Assembly: GCA_964349305.1 (NCBI GenBank)
Contig: CAYGFS010000003.1
Location: 1 to 52,597 of the forward strand
Source of the DNA: an uncultured Pseudomonadales bacterium
GTDB taxonomy: Bacteria; Patescibacteriota; Microgenomatia; UBA1400; UBA12108
Reading direction: 5' to 3'
DNA: 52,597 nt
The stretch's first letter is position 1. Every line of letters starts with the position of its first letter. Shown piece by piece: positions 24,626 to 52,597 of the stretch. Position numbers and translations under genes: made by a program. The notes beneath the pieces were generated by a model that searched no databases, was not told where the DNA came from, and worked only from the letters and a program-made list of their open reading frames with translations.

Positions 24626-24652
24626 GCGTTGATTTTATACCATAATAAGAAT

Positions 24653-24675
24653 TTACAAGGTTCGGAACTTTGTAA
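24653..24675. repeat. REP-like palindrome copy A (immediately 3' of the RAYT stop)
   Basis: TTACAAGGTTCGGAACTTTGTAA. 11-bp stem with one G-T mismatch. Confidence 0.9.
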
Positions 24676-25353
24676 TTACTGATCTTCGTTGACGTCGAGT
24701 GTTATTTTTTCAATATTGCCAACGTCCCCTCCATCTTCGACAAAACCTTTATATTCCTGAGGCGGATTTTTGCGGTACCTTCCTAGTAAAGTAGCCTTAT
24801 CGATCCAAGGAGTATCAATATCGTTAATATAGTTGTAATAAGACGAGTATTTATACTCAGATAATTTACAAGGTTCGGAACTTTGTAAATGCAGCGGATT
24901 TCTGTGAATATACTTCGAGAGGTAGAACCATTGATATTCGTTAGTTACGAGTACGTTTTTGTATTTTCCTTGGAAAATAGTGCCTGAGTGATGGTGTCTA
25001 TCGTTGAAATACATGGAGTATCCAATGCTCACTCTTCTCATGAGATCCGAAATGGTTAAGGTGTTGTTCTCTTGTTTAATCATGAAATGAAAATGATTTG
25101 GCATGAGGCAGTATGCCAGGAGAGAACAGCTGCGAGGTTCGACTGCAAGGTTCGGAACTTTGTAATCCTTGGGTTTTCGACTGAGAGTGCTTTGAGCGAT
25201 CCCCCGGGGATGGAGCAAATAGTAGCTTAGAATTTCTGTAAAAACTTGATAGTCTTCGGCATCCAGGAAGAGCTTTTGCTGGTGAGCCCCCCTGTTGTAG
25301 ATGTGATAATAACAACCTGGTACAAATATGCGCTGGTAATAAATACTGGGCAT
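24676..25353 (-). CDS. REP-associated tyrosine transposase (RAYT; IS200-like Y1/HUH family)
   Basis: YHIYNRG, HUH motif in AYCLMPNHFHFMI, QGKYK, and the SKYIHRNP tyrosine motif. 225 aa with no tnpB partner. Confidence 0.85.
   Translation of the reverse strand: MPSIYYQRIFVPGCYYHIYNRGAHQQKLFLDAEDYQVFTEILSYYLLHPRGIAQSTLSRKPKDYKVPNLAVEPRSCSLLAYCLMPNHFHFMIKQENNTLTISDLMRRVSIGYSMYFNDRHHHSGTIFQGKYKNVLVTNEYQWFYLSKYIHRNPLHLQSSEPCKLSEYKYSSYYNYINDIDTPWIDKATLLGRYRKNPPQEYKGFVEDGGDVGNIEKITLDVNEDQ
24866..24888. repeat. REP-like palindrome copy B (inside RAYT CDS, translated ..LQSSEPC..)
   Basis: Identical 23-mer TTACAAGGTTCGGAACTTTGTAA. Confidence 0.9.
25144..25165. repeat. REP-like palindrome copy C (inside RAYT CDS, translated ..YKVPNLA..)
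   Basis: TGCAAGGTTCGGAACTTTGTAA. The 20-nt core is identical. It is preceded by a partial duplication, GAGGTTCGAC. Confidence 0.9.
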
Positions 25354-25363
25354 GGATTCATTA

Positions 25364-25386
25364 TTACAAGGTTCGGAACTTTGTAA
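25364..25386. repeat. REP-like palindrome copy D (10 nt 5' of the RAYT start, in the RAYT/pilB divergent region)
   Basis: Identical 23-mer. Confidence 0.9.
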
Positions 25387-41913: not shown

Positions 41914-42015
41914 TTAGCGGATGAAAAATGGCGCGAACGACGTGGCGAGGAGCGCTAGGGTGGCGATAGCTGTGATGACGGTCCAGACCTTGCGCTGGCG
42001 TTTAGTCAGTGACAT
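41914..42015 (-). CDS. possible 33-aa hydrophobic peptide
   Basis: MSLTKRQRKVWTVITAIATLALLATSFAPFFIR. It overlaps the tyrS 3' end by 14 nt. No RBS was seen, so this is speculative. Confidence 0.2.
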   Translation of the reverse strand: MSLTKRQRKVWTVITAIATLALLATSFAPFFIR

Positions 42016-43162
42016 AGATTATTTTCCTAAATGTGCGTTTACCAAACTTTAGTGTACTCCCAGTGACTGGAGTTGTGGGGTCCTCGACGCGAACGCCGTC
42101 GATTTCTACCCCGCCCTGCTCGAGGGTGCGTTTAATGTCAGAGTTGCTGACGCCAAGATCGGCTGATTTAAGGGCTTCAAGGATGGGTGTTCCCTCTTTA
42201 ACACTCAGTTCGGGAGTAGTGTCTGGGGCGGTTTTGGTTTGGACAAAATCGTCGTAATACTTTTGTCCATTAGTCGCACCCGTGTCGCCGTGGAGCTGGC
42301 GAGTGATGTCGTAGGCCAAGCGCTTTTTGTTTTCGATAGGTTTGCTGGTGTCGAGGGATTTAATTTCGTCCATGGGGATATCGGTGAGTAATTCGTAGTA
42401 AGTAGTAATCATGCTGTCAGCCATAGCCATGATTTTGGGGTACATAACTTCGGGTTTGTCAGTGAGCCAAATGCAGTTGCCCATGGATTTGCTCATTTGT
42501 TTGCCGTCGGTACCGTTGATCATGGGAGTGGTGAGAACGAACTTTTCGCGGCCACTCATTTTCTTTTGGAGTTCCCGACCGATGAGCATATTAAACTCTT
42601 GGTCGGTGCCACCAATCTCGAGATCGACGTCCATGACGACCGAGTCGTAGCCTTGGAGGAGTGGGTACATGGTTTCGTGGTACCAAACGACGTCGCCCTT
42701 AGCGATCCGCCGAGTAAAACTCTCGCGCTTGAAAAGCTGGGTAGCACTGATGTTAGAGCCAATTTTAATAATGTCTTTTAGAGTAAGTTTGGTGAGCCAG
42801 TCACCATTTTGCCTAATCTTGATGAGATCAAAATCGACAATTTTACTGACCTGTTCTTTCCAGGTTTGGATATTGGCGTCAATTTCCTCCTGGGTAATTA
42901 GCTTGCGACCAGTGTCACGCTCGGAGGGGTCGCCAGCCAGGACGGTACCAGTGCCGAAGAGGAAAATGACTTCGTGACCTGCGCGGGCAAAGTCCATGAG
43001 CTTGCGGAAGCCAATAGTGTGGCCGAGGTGGAGATCTTTGAAGGTGGGATCAAATCCCTGGTAGAGACGGATTTTTTTGCCTGCAATGAGTTTTTCGAGA
43101 CCCTCTTTGGTAGGGAGAATTTTGGCTACACGACGAGTAAGTAAATCATTGTTTGTTTTCAT
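42002..43162 (-). CDS. tyrS: tyrosyl-tRNA synthetase
   Basis: HIGH motif (HLGH), KMSKS-like motif (KQMSKS), and a C-terminal S4 domain. The ATG at 43162 is preferred over the TTG at 43183 because AGGAG lies 5 nt upstream. Confidence 0.92.
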   Translation of the reverse strand: MKTNNDLLTRRVAKILPTKEGLEKLIAGKKIRLYQGFDPTFKDLHLGHTIGFRKLMDFARAGHEVIFLFGTGTVLAGDPSERDTGRKLITQEEIDANIQTWKEQVSKIVDFDLIKIRQNGDWLTKLTLKDIIKIGSNISATQLFKRESFTRRIAKGDVVWYHETMYPLLQGYDSVVMDVDLEIGGTDQEFNMLIGRELQKKMSGREKFVLTTPMINGTDGKQMSKSMGNCIWLTDKPEVMYPKIMAMADSMITTYYELLTDIPMDEIKSLDTSKPIENKKRLAYDITRQLHGDTGATNGQKYYDDFVQTKTAPDTTPELSVKEGTPILEALKSADLGVSNSDIKRTLEQGGVEIDGVRVEDPTTPVTGSTLKFGKRTFRKIIYVTD

Positions 43163-43179
43163 AAGACTCCTGTATTGTA

Positions 43180-44238
43180 TCAAATATTTTTAATCCAGTG
43201 ATCGAGCACTACTCGTACCCTCTCAATGCTATTAAGACTCACCCACTCGCCTTCTGCATGGAGGTTCTTCCCTCTGGGTCCAAAAACTATGGCTGGAATG
43301 CCGAGCGCAGTACAATGCCTTGCGTCAGAGCTACCGTGTTCAAAGCCAGAAATCGGGTTAATGACATTATTTTTTAATGATTTCACAAAAGATTTGCGTA
43401 ATTTACTCTCTTTGGGACAATTAATAGTTGACTCTAGCTTGGCTACTTCAACTGTGCAATTTACAAATATTTTTTCAATATCAGAAATTATTTGCCTTGG
43501 ATTATCCTGTGGATTCCACCTGATATCACACCACAAAGAGCCATCGCCTGGTATCTGATTAATCGCTTCTCCACTATTTATCAGTGAGAAATTGAATGTC
43601 GTGATTCTTGTCTCTTTTAGGGGGCTCGGATTAGCTTCTCTAAATTTGGTAAGGTTAGATGTTAACAACTCTAGTGCACTTTTTCCCTCCCATGGGCGTG
43701 AACCATGACAAGCCGCGCCCGAGGCGGTGATTTTGATCTGAATAATACCTTTAGCTTGTACAATCATCTTTTCACCAGTTGGTTCGAGAAATATGCCACC
43801 TTTTAGATTTGACATCCGAGAAAGGATTGCCTTGGTAGATTCTCCACCTACTTCTTCATCAGCCACTAACATAAAGGTAATGTGTTTGGTTCTAGCAAAA
43901 TTATTCCATGCAGTAGTATTGGCAAGCATAATTGCACAGCTACTTTTGGTATCGGCGGATCCCCTACCCCAAACTTTGCCTCTCTCGATTCTGGGGATGA
44001 ATTGATTGGGATTCCCTGGGACTACGTCGAGATGAGAGTTAATTAGCCACTTAGTTTTATCTAGGTCAAGCTCTCCCCAGATCAGAATTGGCCGTTTTGC
44101 GACCATGATTGTCTTTGGCTTAACTCCTTGTTCTTCGAGAATATTTTTTGATATTTTAATTATTTCTGTACAAGTCTTACGATCATCAGTGATAGAGTGG
44201 ATGTGAATAAGTTGTTTTAAGATCTTTATTTTATTCAT
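43180..44238 (-). CDS. M20-family metallopeptidase/deacylase (ArgE/DapE-like)
   Basis: ..INSHLDVVPG.., GRGSADTKS, LVADEEVGG, and GSSDARH. The ATG at 44238 has AAGGAG 7 nt upstream (track start 44274). Confidence 0.8.
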   Translation of the reverse strand: MNKIKILKQLIHIHSITDDRKTCTEIIKISKNILEEQGVKPKTIMVAKRPILIWGELDLDKTKWLINSHLDVVPGNPNQFIPRIERGKVWGRGSADTKSSCAIMLANTTAWNNFARTKHITFMLVADEEVGGESTKAILSRMSNLKGGIFLEPTGEKMIVQAKGIIQIKITASGAACHGSRPWEGKSALELLTSNLTKFREANPSPLKETRITTFNFSLINSGEAINQIPGDGSLWCDIRWNPQDNPRQIISDIEKIFVNCTVEVAKLESTINCPKESKLRKSFVKSLKNNVINPISGFEHGSSDARHCTALGIPAIVFGPRGKNLHAEGEWVSLNSIERVRVVLDHWIKNI

Positions 44239-44255
44239 ATAATATCTCCTTTTAT

Positions 44256-45296
44256 TTAGTATTCGCTTCCACAAAACCCACTATTAGGAAGCATGCTTTT
44301 TGGCTTTAGCGTATGAATAATTCGTTCAAACTCAGAACTGATTTCTTCAAGCTCTCTTTTCAATTTGAGTGGGACTATGTCGCTGATTTGACCAGGAGCC
44401 AGGAGTGCCCTATTACCATGGTTGTCCCACCCTGATCCAATTGATCCGATCAAAATTACTGGTTTGCCACTCTCTCCACTTACTCTATCGGTTCCACTTA
44501 TTACGACTTGTGGGTTGCTTGCAAACATGCCGATTAGTGGCATGTTTTGGTCAGTTGCTTCAACAACAAATAACGAGCTCCCAAGCCATCTTCTAGTTTC
44601 GTTGGTTAAGATAACGGCATCTTGCCCATCATCTGATGGGACGATTAGATTAAACGGTTTTTTCTGGATTATTTTCAGTCTGCGAATTTCACCTTTTGTT
44701 GACCTACCATTTAGAGCATCGCTAATTCTTCCTTTAATGGTAGAGTTGTCCTTGATGTCGCTTGATGCCAGAAGAAAAGGTTCATTCCTGAGTGGTTCCC
44801 CATGTGCAAATAGTGGTGCAATGGCGTGAGGAGTTAGTTCTAGTACTCCTAGACAGATTTTTTGAGTAGCTATCCCTGAAGGAATCCCTTCAAATTTATC
44901 TGCAGCACGAACTTCGGCTACTAAAGGGATATTCCCATGATTATCTATATGATGCAGAGCCGCAGATAACATGACTTGTTTACCTATGCCGTTACCTTGA
45001 TCTATCGATGCTCCACGGCCTAGTTCCCAGCTCCCATTTTGTTTGACAAGTGCTGCTGTTGCAACGAGTTTCCCATCTTTTGTAGCGAACCATGGTAGAA
45101 CTGAACCATCTCTAATGTCACTAATTAGTTTTTCCTCATTATTCGAGATTCCATGTTGAACATACATTTTTTCTAGCAGGTTAATCATTAGAGTGGCTGA
45201 TACACCAGGATCAAATCTATTTGGTGGAATAATTTTGACACCAGAACATTTATTTTCTGCGGCAGATAGGCTCGCTACTATTTTTTCTCGGTTCAT
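44256..45296 (-). CDS. GNAT-like acetyltransferase domain protein with unknown C-terminal domain
   Basis: The N-terminal half carries GNGIGKQVMLSAALHHID, which looks like a GNAT acetyl-CoA-binding (Q/R-x-x-G-x-G/A) motif. No family was recognised for the C-terminal ~170 aa. Confidence 0.5.
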   Translation of the reverse strand: MNREKIVASLSAAENKCSGVKIIPPNRFDPGVSATLMINLLEKMYVQHGISNNEEKLISDIRDGSVLPWFATKDGKLVATAALVKQNGSWELGRGASIDQGNGIGKQVMLSAALHHIDNHGNIPLVAEVRAADKFEGIPSGIATQKICLGVLELTPHAIAPLFAHGEPLRNEPFLLASSDIKDNSTIKGRISDALNGRSTKGEIRRLKIIQKKPFNLIVPSDDGQDAVILTNETRRWLGSSLFVVEATDQNMPLIGMFASNPQVVISGTDRVSGESGKPVILIGSIGSGWDNHGNRALLAPGQISDIVPLKLKRELEEISSEFERIIHTLKPKSMLPNSGFCGSEY

Positions 45297-48710: not shown

Positions 48711-50579
48711 CTAAGATTTTGAGTCGATATTTAATTTGTCTTTGAGGGTTTTGAGGATGAGGTCTTTTTCAACATTGATAGCAGGAGTGTCTTGAGCCCA
48801 AGTGATTCTAAGTAGATAATTATTTTTTCCACTAATTTCGCTCGGTGTGCCAACTGACTCCATCTTATCCCAAGTATTTGGAAGACTAGATATACAGGTT
48901 ACTATATCAAAATATTTTATTCCGTTGGGTGCTAACAAAGAAAGATCTCGGGAAGTGGGGTGAGAAAATTCTGAGACTATCCCAGTGTATGATTTGGTTA
49001 GTGGCATAAGGGCGTCAGTGACGAGCGTGTAGCTGTTGGCTGCGACAGTACCCACTAGCGCATCGCTCACAATGATTTCGTTTTTTTGGTTGATTTGATA
49101 GCTTTCGATACCGAGGGAGCTGAGAAGTGTTGAGAGAGAGTCTGCTACTCCAGAATGCGACGGGAACATGACGGTGAGCAGACGACCCTCAAGATATTTG
49201 TCCGCTGACTGACGGAAAACTTTGCCGATTTCAAAAACGGCGGTGTTTGTTTGTTTGTGTTTTTTGTAGGTAGAGTGAACGTGAGTTAGACCACCCAGGA
49301 GATCGTGGCGCAGCGCGTTTTGATCGCTGGAGAGAGCATTGGCCAGCACGACTTCGTCCTTTTGGCCGGTTGCGGCAGTCAGCGAGCTGGTAATGTGTTC
49401 GTGTGCTCCTTGCGCTACCATGAGGTCACGCAGGCGATCTTCAAGGCGGTAGATAGGGGGCGTGATATCACGGGGAACAGGAGTACTCAAGGAGATTTGG
49501 GGGATACCAGTGTAGTTGTGGATGCGCAAAATGTCCGAGATGAGATCGTCTTCCACCTCGACGTCGGTGCGAAAATAGGGTATCTCCAGTGTCAGCTCAC
49601 TATCATTTTCCTCAGTGATCACGTATTCGAGGGATTTGAGGATTTTTTTGGCGGTTGAGAGTGGGATGTCCATGCCGGAGAGGAGGTGGAGACGACTCAA
49701 GCGCAAAGTCATAGTTTTGGGTACAACAGGAGTGGGATAATAATCACCGTTCGCGTAATAGGTCCCGCCGGCGATTTCCAGGATCAAATCTGTTGCTCGT
49801 GCAAGTGCTAGGTCGATGGCGCGGGGGTCAAGGAATTTGTCGTTGCGACTGACCGATTCGTTTAAAATCTTGAGCTTGCGCGATACGGCGCGGATGGTGC
49901 GGGAGTCATAGCTGCCGGAATCGAGCACGATGTCGGTAGTACTATCTGTGACACCGGTGTTTTTACCACCGACAATCCCGCCGATCACGGTGACTTCACC
50001 GCCTGAGGTGAGAACAAACGCATCGCTATTTAGTTTGACTTCAGTACCGAGCAAGGTGGTGAGTTTTTCGCCGTTTTTGGCCAGGCGAATAGTAATATCT
50101 CGTCCTTTTAACTTGGCGATATCTTGGGTGTGCAATGGTTGGCCGTACTCGATCATGACAAGATTGGTGATGTCGACGATGTTGTTGATGGACTCCATAC
50201 CATAAGTGGTTAAGCGATCGATGATCCACTGGGGAGATTTGCCCACTTTGATGCCCTTGAAAACACGGGTCTGGAAACGTTTGACGGCGGGCGTGTCGAC
50301 GGTGACTTTGATATGCTCGGCAGCAGGAAGTGACTTACCCGGTTTCGTCGAGAACTTTGGGAGTTTGAGAGGGATGTCTTCAAAAGCTGCTAGGTCACGA
50401 GCGCAACCAATCATAGAAAGCCAATCGGAGCGATCCATACGGTGCTCTAGGTCGAGGACATTTTTGTCGTCCAGTGGTTTGTCTAACATAAGACCGAGCT
50501 GAGTAAAACTAGCCGCTACTTCTTTAGCCGACTTGCTGGTTTCGACGTAGTCTTTGAGCCACACGAGAGGAATTTTCAT
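48711..50579 (-). CDS. pheT: phenylalanyl-tRNA synthetase beta subunit (short form)
   Basis: Starts MKIPLVWLKDYV. A B3/B4 domain is present (NNIVDITNLVMIEYGQPLHTQD), followed by B5 and a C-terminal FDX-ACB-like domain. At 622 aa it has no room for a B2 OB-fold. Confidence 0.9.
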   Translation of the reverse strand: MKIPLVWLKDYVETSKSAKEVAASFTQLGLMLDKPLDDKNVLDLEHRMDRSDWLSMIGCARDLAAFEDIPLKLPKFSTKPGKSLPAAEHIKVTVDTPAVKRFQTRVFKGIKVGKSPQWIIDRLTTYGMESINNIVDITNLVMIEYGQPLHTQDIAKLKGRDITIRLAKNGEKLTTLLGTEVKLNSDAFVLTSGGEVTVIGGIVGGKNTGVTDSTTDIVLDSGSYDSRTIRAVSRKLKILNESVSRNDKFLDPRAIDLALARATDLILEIAGGTYYANGDYYPTPVVPKTMTLRLSRLHLLSGMDIPLSTAKKILKSLEYVITEENDSELTLEIPYFRTDVEVEDDLISDILRIHNYTGIPQISLSTPVPRDITPPIYRLEDRLRDLMVAQGAHEHITSSLTAATGQKDEVVLANALSSDQNALRHDLLGGLTHVHSTYKKHKQTNTAVFEIGKVFRQSADKYLEGRLLTVMFPSHSGVADSLSTLLSSLGIESYQINQKNEIIVSDALVGTVAANSYTLVTDALMPLTKSYTGIVSEFSHPTSRDLSLLAPNGIKYFDIVTCISSLPNTWDKMESVGTPSEISGKNNYLLRITWAQDTPAINVEKDLILKTLKDKLNIDSKS

Positions 50580-52318
50580 AGGTAGACTATTTCACCTCCG
50601 TAAAGCTTGCGGATGTCCGTGATGCCGTATTTAGACATGACGAGGCGGTCGAGGCCAAGGCCGAATGAATAACCCGTGTAGATTTCCGGATCGATTCCGC
50701 ACGATTTATAGCAGTTGTAATGGGTCATGCCAGATCCCAGTGTTTCAATCCAACCACGATATTTACATACCTGGCAGCCTTTGCCGCCACAAAATCTACA
50801 TTGCATATCGACTCCCATGCCGGGACTCACCTCAGGATAATATTTGTAGCGGAAGCGGAGTTTGACGTCGGCGCCAAATAAAAACTGATGTAATCCCGTG
50901 AGCATGTCTTTAAGGTGGCCGATGGTAACTCCCTTGTCTACCACAAATCCCTGGTATTGGTAGAAGAAAGCGCTGTTGGTGGAGTTGGTAGTTTCATTTC
51001 GATAACATTTTCCAGGAACAACGACGCGGAGAGGTGGTTTGTAGTTGGAAAGCACCCGCGTTTGGATCGAGGAGGTGTGTGTACGAAGAAGTAAATTTGG
51101 TTCTTGGATAAACAGTGAGTCCTGTAGATCGGTGGCGGGGTGGCCCTCAGGGAGGTTGAGACGGCGGAAGTTATACTCGACGTCCTCAATCTCTGGTCCT
51201 TCGCCAATAGAAAAGCCTTGGTAGCGGAAAAATTCGTTCATTTCGCGGATAATGACGGTGGTGGGGTGGAGGCGGCCGATCGGGTGAGGGGTACCAGGGA
51301 CAGTTAGATCTAGACCACTGATTTGAGACGAGGCGGCAAGCTCGCTTTTTTTGTTGGCGATTTGCTCTTCTTGGGATTTTTTGAGTTCGTTGAGCAGTGG
51401 GCCGAACTTTTGTTTGTCCTGCAGGGCCAGGCCCTGCAGGCTCTTGAGTAGCTGGGTAGTACTCCCCTTTTTGCCAAGGTATTTGAGATATAGTGAGTCT
51501 AGATCAGTTTGATTTTTAATCGATTCGAGATCAGCTGTGAACTGCGGACCAATTTCAGATATTTTTTCTGGAATATTTACAGCACTACGATAATTCGAAT
51601 TATCGTAGTGTTTGGCCATTGGTTGCGTGGTCGTGTAGTGGACAAGTGTGGAATTGTTTGTGTGTTCGATGTTGGAAACGGTAATGGGCCAAATATCATC
51701 GCCGGTCTTGAGCTGGGTACCGCCGTCGGGGATATGATAATCCTGACCAATGCTCAAAACACGGAGTTTTTTGCTGGTGGGGAGCTTGGCGGGGAGCCAA
51801 TTGGACAGCTTTTTAAGTTCTTCGAGAGTCACAAATTGAGTTTTGATCTCGGGTTTAGCGGTGACAAGCTTGGTGAGCTCTGTGTTTAACTGGTCTAGAT
51901 CTAAATTTTGTATTCCTTCGAATTCGATAAACAGCTTTTTGCCAATGCCGTGCATCCCGCGAATGGGAATAAGTTGTGGATAGATAGTCCGCGTGACCAG
52001 ATCTACCAGGTGGCCGGCAGTGTGCCACTGCATATGTTTGAGGCGAAGAGGCCAGTCGATGGTAAGCTCGACGCTTTGACCGACAGTGAAATCACCCTTC
52101 ATGGTGCCTAAGTGTTTGATTTGCCCACCGTTGTATTCGACAGACTTGACGCTTAACTCACCCGAGGCTGATTTAATTGTGCCCTTGTCTGACTGTTGGC
52201 CGCCACCCTGGGGGTAAAAGATGGTTTGGTCGAGGATTGCGTAGGTATTCCCTACTGCAATCACCTTAGCCGTAGCTTTGGATTGATACGAATTGGTTAA
52301 ATAAAGTGCTTCGGTCAT
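50576..52318 (-). CDS. pheS: phenylalanyl-tRNA synthetase alpha subunit fused to an N-terminal AlaX-like domain
   Basis: The C-terminal ~340 aa is a full PheS (LGKKGS.., HPTTVIIREM, class II core GFGLGLDRL). The N-terminal ~240 aa matches the AlaX-M pattern (LYLTNSY.., ILDQTIFYPQGGGQQSDKG, HTAGH). Confidence 0.9.
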   Translation of the reverse strand: MTEALYLTNSYQSKATAKVIAVGNTYAILDQTIFYPQGGGQQSDKGTIKSASGELSVKSVEYNGGQIKHLGTMKGDFTVGQSVELTIDWPLRLKHMQWHTAGHLVDLVTRTIYPQLIPIRGMHGIGKKLFIEFEGIQNLDLDQLNTELTKLVTAKPEIKTQFVTLEELKKLSNWLPAKLPTSKKLRVLSIGQDYHIPDGGTQLKTGDDIWPITVSNIEHTNNSTLVHYTTTQPMAKHYDNSNYRSAVNIPEKISEIGPQFTADLESIKNQTDLDSLYLKYLGKKGSTTQLLKSLQGLALQDKQKFGPLLNELKKSQEEQIANKKSELAASSQISGLDLTVPGTPHPIGRLHPTTVIIREMNEFFRYQGFSIGEGPEIEDVEYNFRRLNLPEGHPATDLQDSLFIQEPNLLLRTHTSSIQTRVLSNYKPPLRVVVPGKCYRNETTNSTNSAFFYQYQGFVVDKGVTIGHLKDMLTGLHQFLFGADVKLRFRYKYYPEVSPGMGVDMQCRFCGGKGCQVCKYRGWIETLGSGMTHYNCYKSCGIDPEIYTGYSFGLGLDRLVMSKYGITDIRKLYGGEIVYL

Positions 52319-52349
52319 ACTATTTTCCTATTTTATACTAAACAACTAC

Positions 52350-52373
52350 AAAAAACCCCGCTTGTGGGCGGGG
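52350..52373 (-). terminator. intrinsic terminator in the pheST leader
   Basis: The minus strand reads CCCCGC-CCACAA-GCGGGG followed by UUUUUUG, about 30 nt before the pheS ATG. Confidence 0.7.
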
Positions 52374-52597
52374 ATTCGTAAGTTGCTATTTGTAAAAATT
52401 ACGCAACAAACGCCCCGCTGGTAAAGTGGGTAAACCCGCCTGCAACAGCTGTGCCGTAAGCACTGCGGGCAGGTGAAAATTGCTTTGTTTGTATGTGTGA
52501 CATTATTTTGAAGTATATACCCCTAGATACGCCAAAAGCAACCTTCCAGTCAGCAAACCCTTATTAGTGGGAATGTGCGGATGGTTGCTTCTCGCAA

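Follow-up and report, generated by a model that had tools for sequence, protein, structure and literature searches.

The window analysed here, a 52,597-nt stretch of DNA (positions 1 to 52,597, forward strand, of contig CAYGFS010000003.1, GenBank assembly GCA_964349305.1), comes from an ultra-small, Woesebacteria-like bacterium and carries a pheS gene in which phenylalanyl-tRNA synthetase (PheRS) is joined to an additional domain. Its single open reading frame (ORF) encodes one polypeptide consisting, in frame, of an AlaX-M-type module, a linker and a complete PheS. Comparison with relatives showed that the variant second motif of the module, PDGGTQ, marks a large Asp-type subfamily of predicted AlaX-M proteins spread across the candidate phyla radiation (CPR), and not degeneration, and that the module is an optional accessory in this genus, present or absent in near-identical pheST operons. 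We propose, at a probability of roughly 45%, that the module may work as a deacylase without the Cys, adding an accessory step of post-transfer proofreading to PheRS.

One reading frame for an AlaX-M-type module, a linker and PheS

The fused gene is the only copy of pheS in the genome, and in the assembly sequence its ORF contains neither an internal stop nor a frameshift. Its parts, in window coordinates, are:

50576-52318, minus strand: fused pheS gene of 580 codons and a stop codon (translation, Pfam, NCBIfam)
51623-52318, minus strand: AlaX-M-like module, residues 1-232, beta-barrel subdomain plus editing core
51533-51622, minus strand: linker, residues 233-262 (~30 residues), disordered
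51320-51532, minus strand: PheS N-terminal helical arm, residues 263-333 (Pfam Phe_tRNA-synt_N and long helices in the AlphaFold 2 model)
50579-51319, minus strand: PheS class II catalytic core, residues 334-580 (Pfam tRNA-synt_2d)

An earlier note on this DNA, written without database searches, had proposed a fusion of an AlaX-like domain, delimited at 51599-52318 (residues 1-240, i.e. the module and the first part of the linker), to a complete PheS, and this fusion was borne out by the 580-aa frame and by profile searches. Pfam assigned residues 12-89 to the C-terminal beta-barrel part of tRNA-synt_2c (PF01411 positions 472-550), residues 269-330 to Phe_tRNA-synt_N (PF02912, E 2.4e-13) and residues 336-577 to tRNA-synt_2d (PF01409, E 1.9e-71). 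The NCBIfam model AlaXM (NF040865) aligned to residues 2-219 (model positions 1-221 of 234, E 9e-36), with a score of 123.8 bits that lies far under its 300-bit cut-off. Of the profiles suggested in that note, tRNA-synt_2c was matched in its barrel part, and Pfam tRNA_SAD (threshold 24 bits) did not match the fused ORF at E-values up to 0.1. The remainder of the protein scored 215 bits against TIGR00468 (PheS), a little under the cut-off of 237, and was recognized as a bacterial PheS by its class II core, its helical arm, its pheT partner and its being the sole copy in the genome.

The proposed relationship of the N-terminal domain to AlaX also held in comparisons with known structures. A sequence search against the Protein Data Bank (PDB) returned 2e1b, an AlaX-M of P. 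horikoshii, as the best match, with H99 and H103 aligned to H99 and H103 of 2e1b. An AlphaFold model of residues 1-240, with a predicted local distance difference test (pLDDT) score of 95.8, was matched by Foldseek to 2zzf (archaeal alanyl-tRNA synthetase (AlaRS) editing; E 8.6e-17, TMq 0.85), 3kew (TMq 0.79), and the AlaX-M structures 9iuw and 2e1b (TMq ~0.70). In the full-length AlphaFold 2 model both halves were confident, the predicted template modelling score (pTM) was 0.46, and linker residues 236-245 had pLDDT values <50; this pTM, together with the disordered linker, indicates that the module is not docked and that a flexible linker tethers it to the base of the helical arm of PheS.

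A conserved pocket with Asp in the place of Cys

Five elements of the module define its putative pocket and the Asp-type variant:

52196-52207, minus strand: Gly-rich pocket motif G38-G-G-Q41, common to canonical AlaX-M and AlaRS and invariant in the family
52052-52054, minus strand: Trp89, Asp-type-specific
52031-52033, minus strand: Met96, one helical turn before H99, Asp-type-specific
52010-52024, minus strand: first metal/active-site motif H99-T-A-G-H103 (HxxxH), invariant
51713-51730, minus strand: second motif P197-D-G-G-T-Q202, which replaces P-C-G-G-T-H

The Gly-rich loop, of the FYPxGGGQxxDxG type, reads IFYPQGGGQQSDKG (residues 33-46), with G38-Q41, D44 and G46 invariant. Alignment with canonical AlaX-M-like proteins placed D198 in the Cys column and Q202 in the His column of CxGxH, in agreement with the earlier reading of an intact HxxxH and a second motif that has lost both its Cys and its His. 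D198 never varies and Q202 almost never, and the CxGxH by which AlaX-M and AlaRS editing domains are recognized is absent.

The same note had called this zinc site half-degenerate, a description at odds with its conservation throughout a whole subfamily. With residues 1-245 as the query, 120 clusters were retrieved, almost all of them 575-670 aa long and with the same three-part Pfam architecture, which was found in >115 independent protein clusters. PDGGTQ was present in ~118 of these 120 fused homologues (the other two having PDGGTH) and held down to 37% identity, with HxxxH invariant among the fused homologues aligned. The positions invariant in 73 diverse members include T32, G38-Q41, D44, G46, H69, R92, H99, G102, H103, H123, R186, D198-T201 and Y228, and T32, G38-Q41, D44, H69, R92, H99, H103, H123, R186 and Y228 are common to the module and canonical AlaX-M. 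Pairwise ratios of non-synonymous to synonymous substitution rates (dN/dS) among seven relatives came to ~0.10 in the module and 0.08 in the PheS core, against ~0.45 in the linker (mean identity 30%); these values are rough, dS being near saturation, and show a module under purifying selection about as strong as that acting on the PheS core. In separately assembled genomes from this order, the fusion was encoded by open frames of 575-640 aa, and the source names of fused clusters included Microgenomates group bacterium and Gottesmanbacteria, with one unfused PheS relative named Woesebacteria.

For the wider family, we aligned 156 domains, comprising the 150 nearest 50%-identity representatives and a few extra family members. 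Asp occupied the Cys column in 36 of these (His column: Gln in 27, His in 5, Leu/Ile in 4), and the remaining 120 all had both Cys and His. Thirty-five of the 36 Asp-type proteins fell in one clade (39 rows, support 91), which also held three Cys-type proteins, in a tree built, like that of the PheS cores discussed below, with FastTree only. D198 was found in 100% of the Asp-type clade, as was Met96 (Ala/Ser in canonical proteins), and Trp89 in 92%. These latter two residues, on or just before the HxxxH helix, were the only further systematic differences of the Asp type, all other conserved pocket residues being as in canonical proteins. When the search was started from a free-standing member, 94 of 98 relatives were Asp-type (46 D..Q, 46 D..H and 2 D..I) and one, from an Anaerolineaceae bacterium, was a C..Q intermediate; the names retrieved included Dojkabacteria and Parcubacteria.

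Genome samples gave a complementary picture of its distribution. In 400 genomes of the phylum, matching frames were either ~210-250 aa long or AlaRS-sized (690-1050 aa), with none of PheS-fusion length (575-640 aa), and the six free-standing genes extracted and aligned from this sample were all Cys-type. In 201 genomes of the same order, the module was detected in 31, in about two dozen as a PheS fusion. Public annotations name the fused and related proteins PheS, "alanine--tRNA ligase-related" or AlaX, and we found no paper on the fusion architecture or the Asp variant in the literature on AlaX, Patescibacteria, PheRS and CPR PheRS editing. In AlaRS-type editing, zinc is dispensable and mainly shields a catalytically important Cys from oxidation, the CxGxH Cys is reported to be crucial for editing, and the HxxxH/CxGxH motif is reported as invariant across life (PMC12003907); the Asp-type subfamily provides a natural test of the roles of Cys and zinc in this chemistry.

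Presence and absence of the module in near-identical operons

A search with the PheS core returned fused and unfused proteins interleaved by identity, and a tree of 186 PheS cores (residues 265 onward) included 33 switches between the fused and unfused states, at least 18 of which were forced by well-supported branches. Over residues 280-580, a fused partner with ≥90% identity was available for 24 of the 68 unfused proteins, and the top fused/unfused pairs were 99.7, 99.3 and 99.0% identical. Gene context was equal in both forms (thrS-infC-rpmI-rplT-spacer-pheS-pheT-PBP1A), and PheT measured 616 aa in both members of P0147/P0045, the one pair with both PheT genes listed. In three congeneric species (91-95% complete), the pheS ORF was 330-334 aa long and a six-frame search yielded no module match genome-wide.

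At the DNA level, two fused loci aligned with two unfused ones revealed a clean, in-frame block of 744 nt, beginning at the start codon and present in the fused loci only, after which homology between the two alleles resumed at PheS codon 2-3. The start of the unfused PheS was equivalent to residue 249 in 57 of 68 proteins; fused forms displayed no conserved internal Met as an alternative start for a short PheS, position 249 being L, F or I. Because these boundaries are identical across lineages and the cores near-identical, we infer that two old alleles have probably been swapped by homologous recombination, which fits better than many independent deletions. Near-isogenic presence and absence, the exact boundaries of the indel, the dispersed nature of the repeat described next and the refutation of compensation (see below) are the new elements here. 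Enzymes that are 99% identical with and without the module constitute natural isogenic pairs for the study of its function, and they illustrate that, even in tiny genomes, an accessory cassette can be built into the gene for a core synthetase.

The downstream edge of the 744-nt block is occupied by a palindrome lying inside the linker codons:

51583-51610, no strand: perfect 28-nt palindrome with a 12-bp stem

Positions 51584-51610 encode HYDNSNYRS (residues 237-245). The palindrome core, T[TA]CGATRRTTCGAAYYATCG[AT]A, belongs to a dispersed family resembling repetitive extragenic palindromes, with 5-6 copies in this genome (contig:position C1:56923, C1:107152, C1:107635, C15:7101, C5:22930 and C27:10631); each of the four congeners searched has 3-9, reversed-pattern controls yielding 0. 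A 297-aa ORF contains one copy in frame, and alaS a degenerate one. The family has two stem variants, AATT and GGCC, either of which can occupy the pheS linker. Such stem changes are more readily accounted for by membership of this dispersed family than by compensatory changes that preserve a hairpin in the linker. This palindrome may be a driver of module gain and loss, or a passenger in a linker that tolerates it and that originated as a spacer between genes. The window also contains hairpins associated with a REP-associated tyrosine transposase (RAYT; 24650-25386), and an identity of these with the junction palindrome was rejected, as their stems are not the same and the resemblance is confined to the TTCG(G)AA apex.

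Repeated attachment to both subunits of PheRS

Asp-type modules were found in four arrangements, namely as free-standing genes, as a separate gene upstream of pheS, as N-terminal fusions to PheS and as C-terminal fusions to PheT. The PheT fusions (P0195/P0339, P0201, P0208 and P0253) take at least two positions in the domain tree, with moderate branch support, and one of them (P0339, 838 aa, named Shapirobacteria) is encoded in the neighbourhood thrS-infC-rpmI-rplT-pheS-pheT-PBP1A-recG, as in this window. As a separate gene, the Asp-type module (229 aa) lies 19 nt upstream of pheS in the thrS-infC-rplT-pheST operon of another lineage, and 580 nt upstream of pheS in a further genome (G408). Canonical Cys/His AlaX-M is also found fused to PheS (P0280/P0340), in the other half of the domain tree and beside a full-length, 860-aa PheT that carries tRNA_bind and FDX-ACB domains (PheT next to P0340); Cys-type AlaX-M was joined to PheS independently of the Asp-type fusions. 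Among the long proteins scanned for the 150 nearest representatives, PheS and PheT were the only synthetase partners, with no AlaRS fusion seen. This repeated attachment to both PheRS subunits suggests an undescribed proofreading step on tRNA-Phe.

Free-standing Asp-type genes occupy other contexts, including a position between rpsG and fusA. One such gene (P0203; L030:3829-5723) lies beside a WelO5-like 2-oxoglutarate/Fe(II) enzyme and helix-turn-helix regulators, and another (L029:3441-9236) beside a radical S-adenosylmethionine gene and an 821-aa tyrosine decarboxylase, two contexts that hint at amino-acid-analogue metabolism. A further fusion partner, a PDZ domain, was observed in P0337 (320 aa), where it comes after the Asp-type AlaX-like domain.

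PheT and AlaRS with and without the module

The partner subunit is encoded immediately downstream of the fused gene:

48711-50579, minus strand: pheT, 622 aa, with B3/4, B5 and CLM domains, translationally coupled to pheS by an ATGA overlap

Pfam detected B3/4 in pheT (E 2.4e-50) and returned no match to tRNA_bind (B2) or FDX-ACB, nor any domain in the C-terminal 150 residues, so that PheT keeps B3/B4 and is without B2, as had been noticed before; many CPR PheT proteins are without B2 (PMC5370408). Across seven key positions of B3/B4 (E. coli numbering; residue roles from PMC8599791), four differ from E. coli (R244E, E334D, T354N and A356S) and N254, H265 and G318 are kept, position 244 being E or D across relatives. 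The AlaRS of this genome (C27, L003:1078-2865, minus strand) is 595 aa long and joins aminoacylation and tRNA-recognition domains to an AlaX-S-like core, which keeps HTATH and CGGPH, without a beta-barrel subdomain or C-Ala. Five genomes without the module have this short form (query residues 1-592), as do four of the five that carry the module; in the fifth (G534), AlaRS is cut by a contig end.

Since short versions of PheT and AlaRS accompany near-identical PheS cores both with and without the module, compensation for a reduced PheT or a reduced AlaRS was ruled out. This includes the suggestion, made in the earlier note, of a handle that compensates for the missing B2 of PheT, which is contradicted both by PheS cores 99.0-99.7% identical to fused ones and without the module, and by the P0340-type fusion beside a full-length PheT.

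A candidate accessory proofreading module

Of the functions suggested earlier for the additional domain, a second proofreading module is the best reading of these comparisons. The Asp in the place of Cys would create a site that is predicted to be insensitive to oxidation and possibly metal-binding, and the tether would hold the module next to the PheRS active site. The likeliest target would be a wrong residue on tRNA-Phe that B3/B4 handles poorly, possibly, by analogy with BesG, AlfB and FuzB, a beta-hydroxylated or other non-canonical analogue of Phe or Tyr. The benefit may depend on the environment, in which case strains would gain or lose the module accordingly. This proposal is favoured by a fusion that is real and recurrent, by the conservation of the pocket residues, by the low dN/dS of the module and its confident AlaX/AlaRS-editing-like fold, and by its repeated links to PheRS and its optional occurrence.

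Several known systems resemble parts of this arrangement. The module shares with AlaX-M (type II AlaXp; P. horikoshii PH0108, 2e1b, and P. furiosus, 9iuw) the beta-barrel, the FYPxGGGQxxDxG loop and an editing core with HxxxH, and differs from it by Asp/Gln in place of Cys/His, by Met96 and Trp89, and by its covalent attachment to PheS. AlaX-family deacylases have been re-targeted to beta-hydroxy residues for self-protection, BesG acting on tRNA-Thr and AlfB on tRNA-Met, and FuzB is a proposed deacylase for hydroxy-arginine (PMC13149037). By their description, these three are, like the module, strain-variable accessory genes with an AlaX fold outside the main Ser/Gly-tRNA-Ala cluster, although they are located in biosynthetic gene clusters whereas the module is fused to PheS in the pheST operon. 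Finally, PheRS B3/B4 and CtdA (PMC8599791, PMC12268091) also perform post-transfer proofreading in association with, or derived from, PheRS, and CtdA is an example of an editing module re-targeted to non-protein amino acids (PMC8599791, PMC12268091); their fold and chemistry are, however, unrelated to those of the module, and B3/B4 is itself also present here.

Importantly, several observations weigh against a proofreading role. The Cys called crucial by mutagenesis is absent, and catalysis may have been lost. The dispensability of the module shows that PheRS function does not need it, and the B3/B4 pattern is equal with and without the module, i.e. there is no co-variation that would point to a hand-over of editing. 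Free-standing Asp-type genes occur in contexts unrelated to PheRS, such that the substrate need not be tRNA-Phe, and the PheS fusions themselves could reflect mere operon adjacency of the gene to pheS. In addition, ARAGORN finds only 29 tRNA genes in this 96%-complete assembly, tRNA-Phe being among those missing, and when 24 genomes of the family were scanned with a tRNA-Phe pattern, the matches were all either tRNA-His or unclear.

The most serious alternative, which we nonetheless consider somewhat unlikely, is an ordinary AlaX that clears Ser- and Gly-tRNA-Ala in trans, with Asp tolerated in place of Cys and a link to PheRS that is only genomic. The nearest characterized relatives of the module are indeed AlaX-M and AlaRS editing domains, the AlaRS of CPR is reduced (as in the 595-aa form described above), Asp-type genes stand free away from pheST as well, and an alaX-like gene located directly upstream of pheS would ease fusion. 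An ordinary AlaX does not, however, readily account for fusions at both ends of PheRS (the PheS N-terminus and the PheT C-terminus), including at least two separate PheT fusions suggested by the tree, nor for a separate Cys-type fusion to PheS when no fusion to AlaRS or any other synthetase was seen among the 150 nearest representatives. Moreover, AlaRS keeps its own HTATH/CGGPH core, and does so equally with and without the module.

A more specific version of the proofreading proposal, in our view rather unlikely as stated, is that the PheRS of many CPR includes a second, AlaX-derived site of the Asp type, maintained as a swappable cassette against an environmental Phe antimetabolite. The module would then act as a strain-variable defence that clears aminoacyl-tRNA-Phe charged with, e.g., beta-hydroxy-Phe (phenylserine) or m-Tyr.

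We regard as improbable a non-catalytic tRNA handle that aids a domain-reduced PheRS (no B2, no recognizable B8). There is a precedent in apicomplexan tryptophanyl-tRNA synthetase (TrpRS), where an AlaX-derived domain is likewise N-terminal on a non-alanine synthetase, joined through a long linker, and in Plasmodium aids tRNA binding (PMC3680381); the PheT studied here is without tRNA_bind and FDX-ACB matches, and the catalytic Cys of the module is missing. Yet the domain of Plasmodium resembles AlaX-S, retains none of the four motif residues and is held to be required for activity, whereas the module has HxxxH, GGGQ and an entire pocket without variation, its conserved positions cluster at the active site, and strains with a 99% identical PheS are without it. 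The near-identical P0147/P0045 pair, with its short PheT in both members, and the fusion beside a full-length PheT also argue against such an aid.

Lastly, a merger of adjacent alaX-like and pheS genes by an assembly or sequencing error is highly improbable: split genes with a 19-nt gap do exist in another lineage and the junction palindrome could cause errors, but the frame is intact in >115 clusters, drawn from NCBI, JGI, ENA and Logan assemblies, as well as in the DNA of seven relatives, and the linker is in frame in all relatives, with either palindrome variant or none.

Upstream leader and neighbouring genes

The fused gene is preceded by rplT and a leader and followed by pheT, and its neighbours include no co-located biosynthesis of non-canonical amino acids. 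The region adjoining the start codon is common to fused and unfused alleles:

52319-52373, minus strand: upstream region with a terminator-like GC hairpin (52356-52373) and a T-run (52350-52355)

Between the T-run and the ATG lie TATAAAAT and then an AGGA-like site, again common to both alleles. Further upstream, a leader element of ~78 nt (52520-52597, minus strand, running off the end of the window) differs very little between fused and unfused relatives (L007, L011); it was seen in three of the four aligned loci, the fourth stretch having ended short of it. Rfam returned only sub-threshold chance matches to the upstream leader, and the element may serve pheST as an attenuator or as a leader that binds a protein. 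Between this element and pheS, a 34-codon ORF (52399-52503, minus strand) looks like a truncated version of the 73-aa ORF that L007 has in the corresponding position. Both have alike C-terminal ends (...AFVA-stop), a stretch kept as DNA in the unfused L013. The longer, similar ORF in L007 and the end kept in L013 weaken a reading of the 34-codon ORF as a Phe-codon leader peptide.

Three additional observations concern other genes. The threonyl-tRNA synthetase of this genome (C53, L002:216-1976) is 586 aa long and begins near the HxxxH of its N2 editing domain, and so is without N1/TGS. In one relative, an M20 peptidase/deacylase gene (L016:1966-2991) lies 10 nt upstream of the fused pheS. In the window itself, an M20 gene is paired with a GCN5-related N-acetyltransferase (GNAT) gene at 42002-45296, upstream of tyrS.

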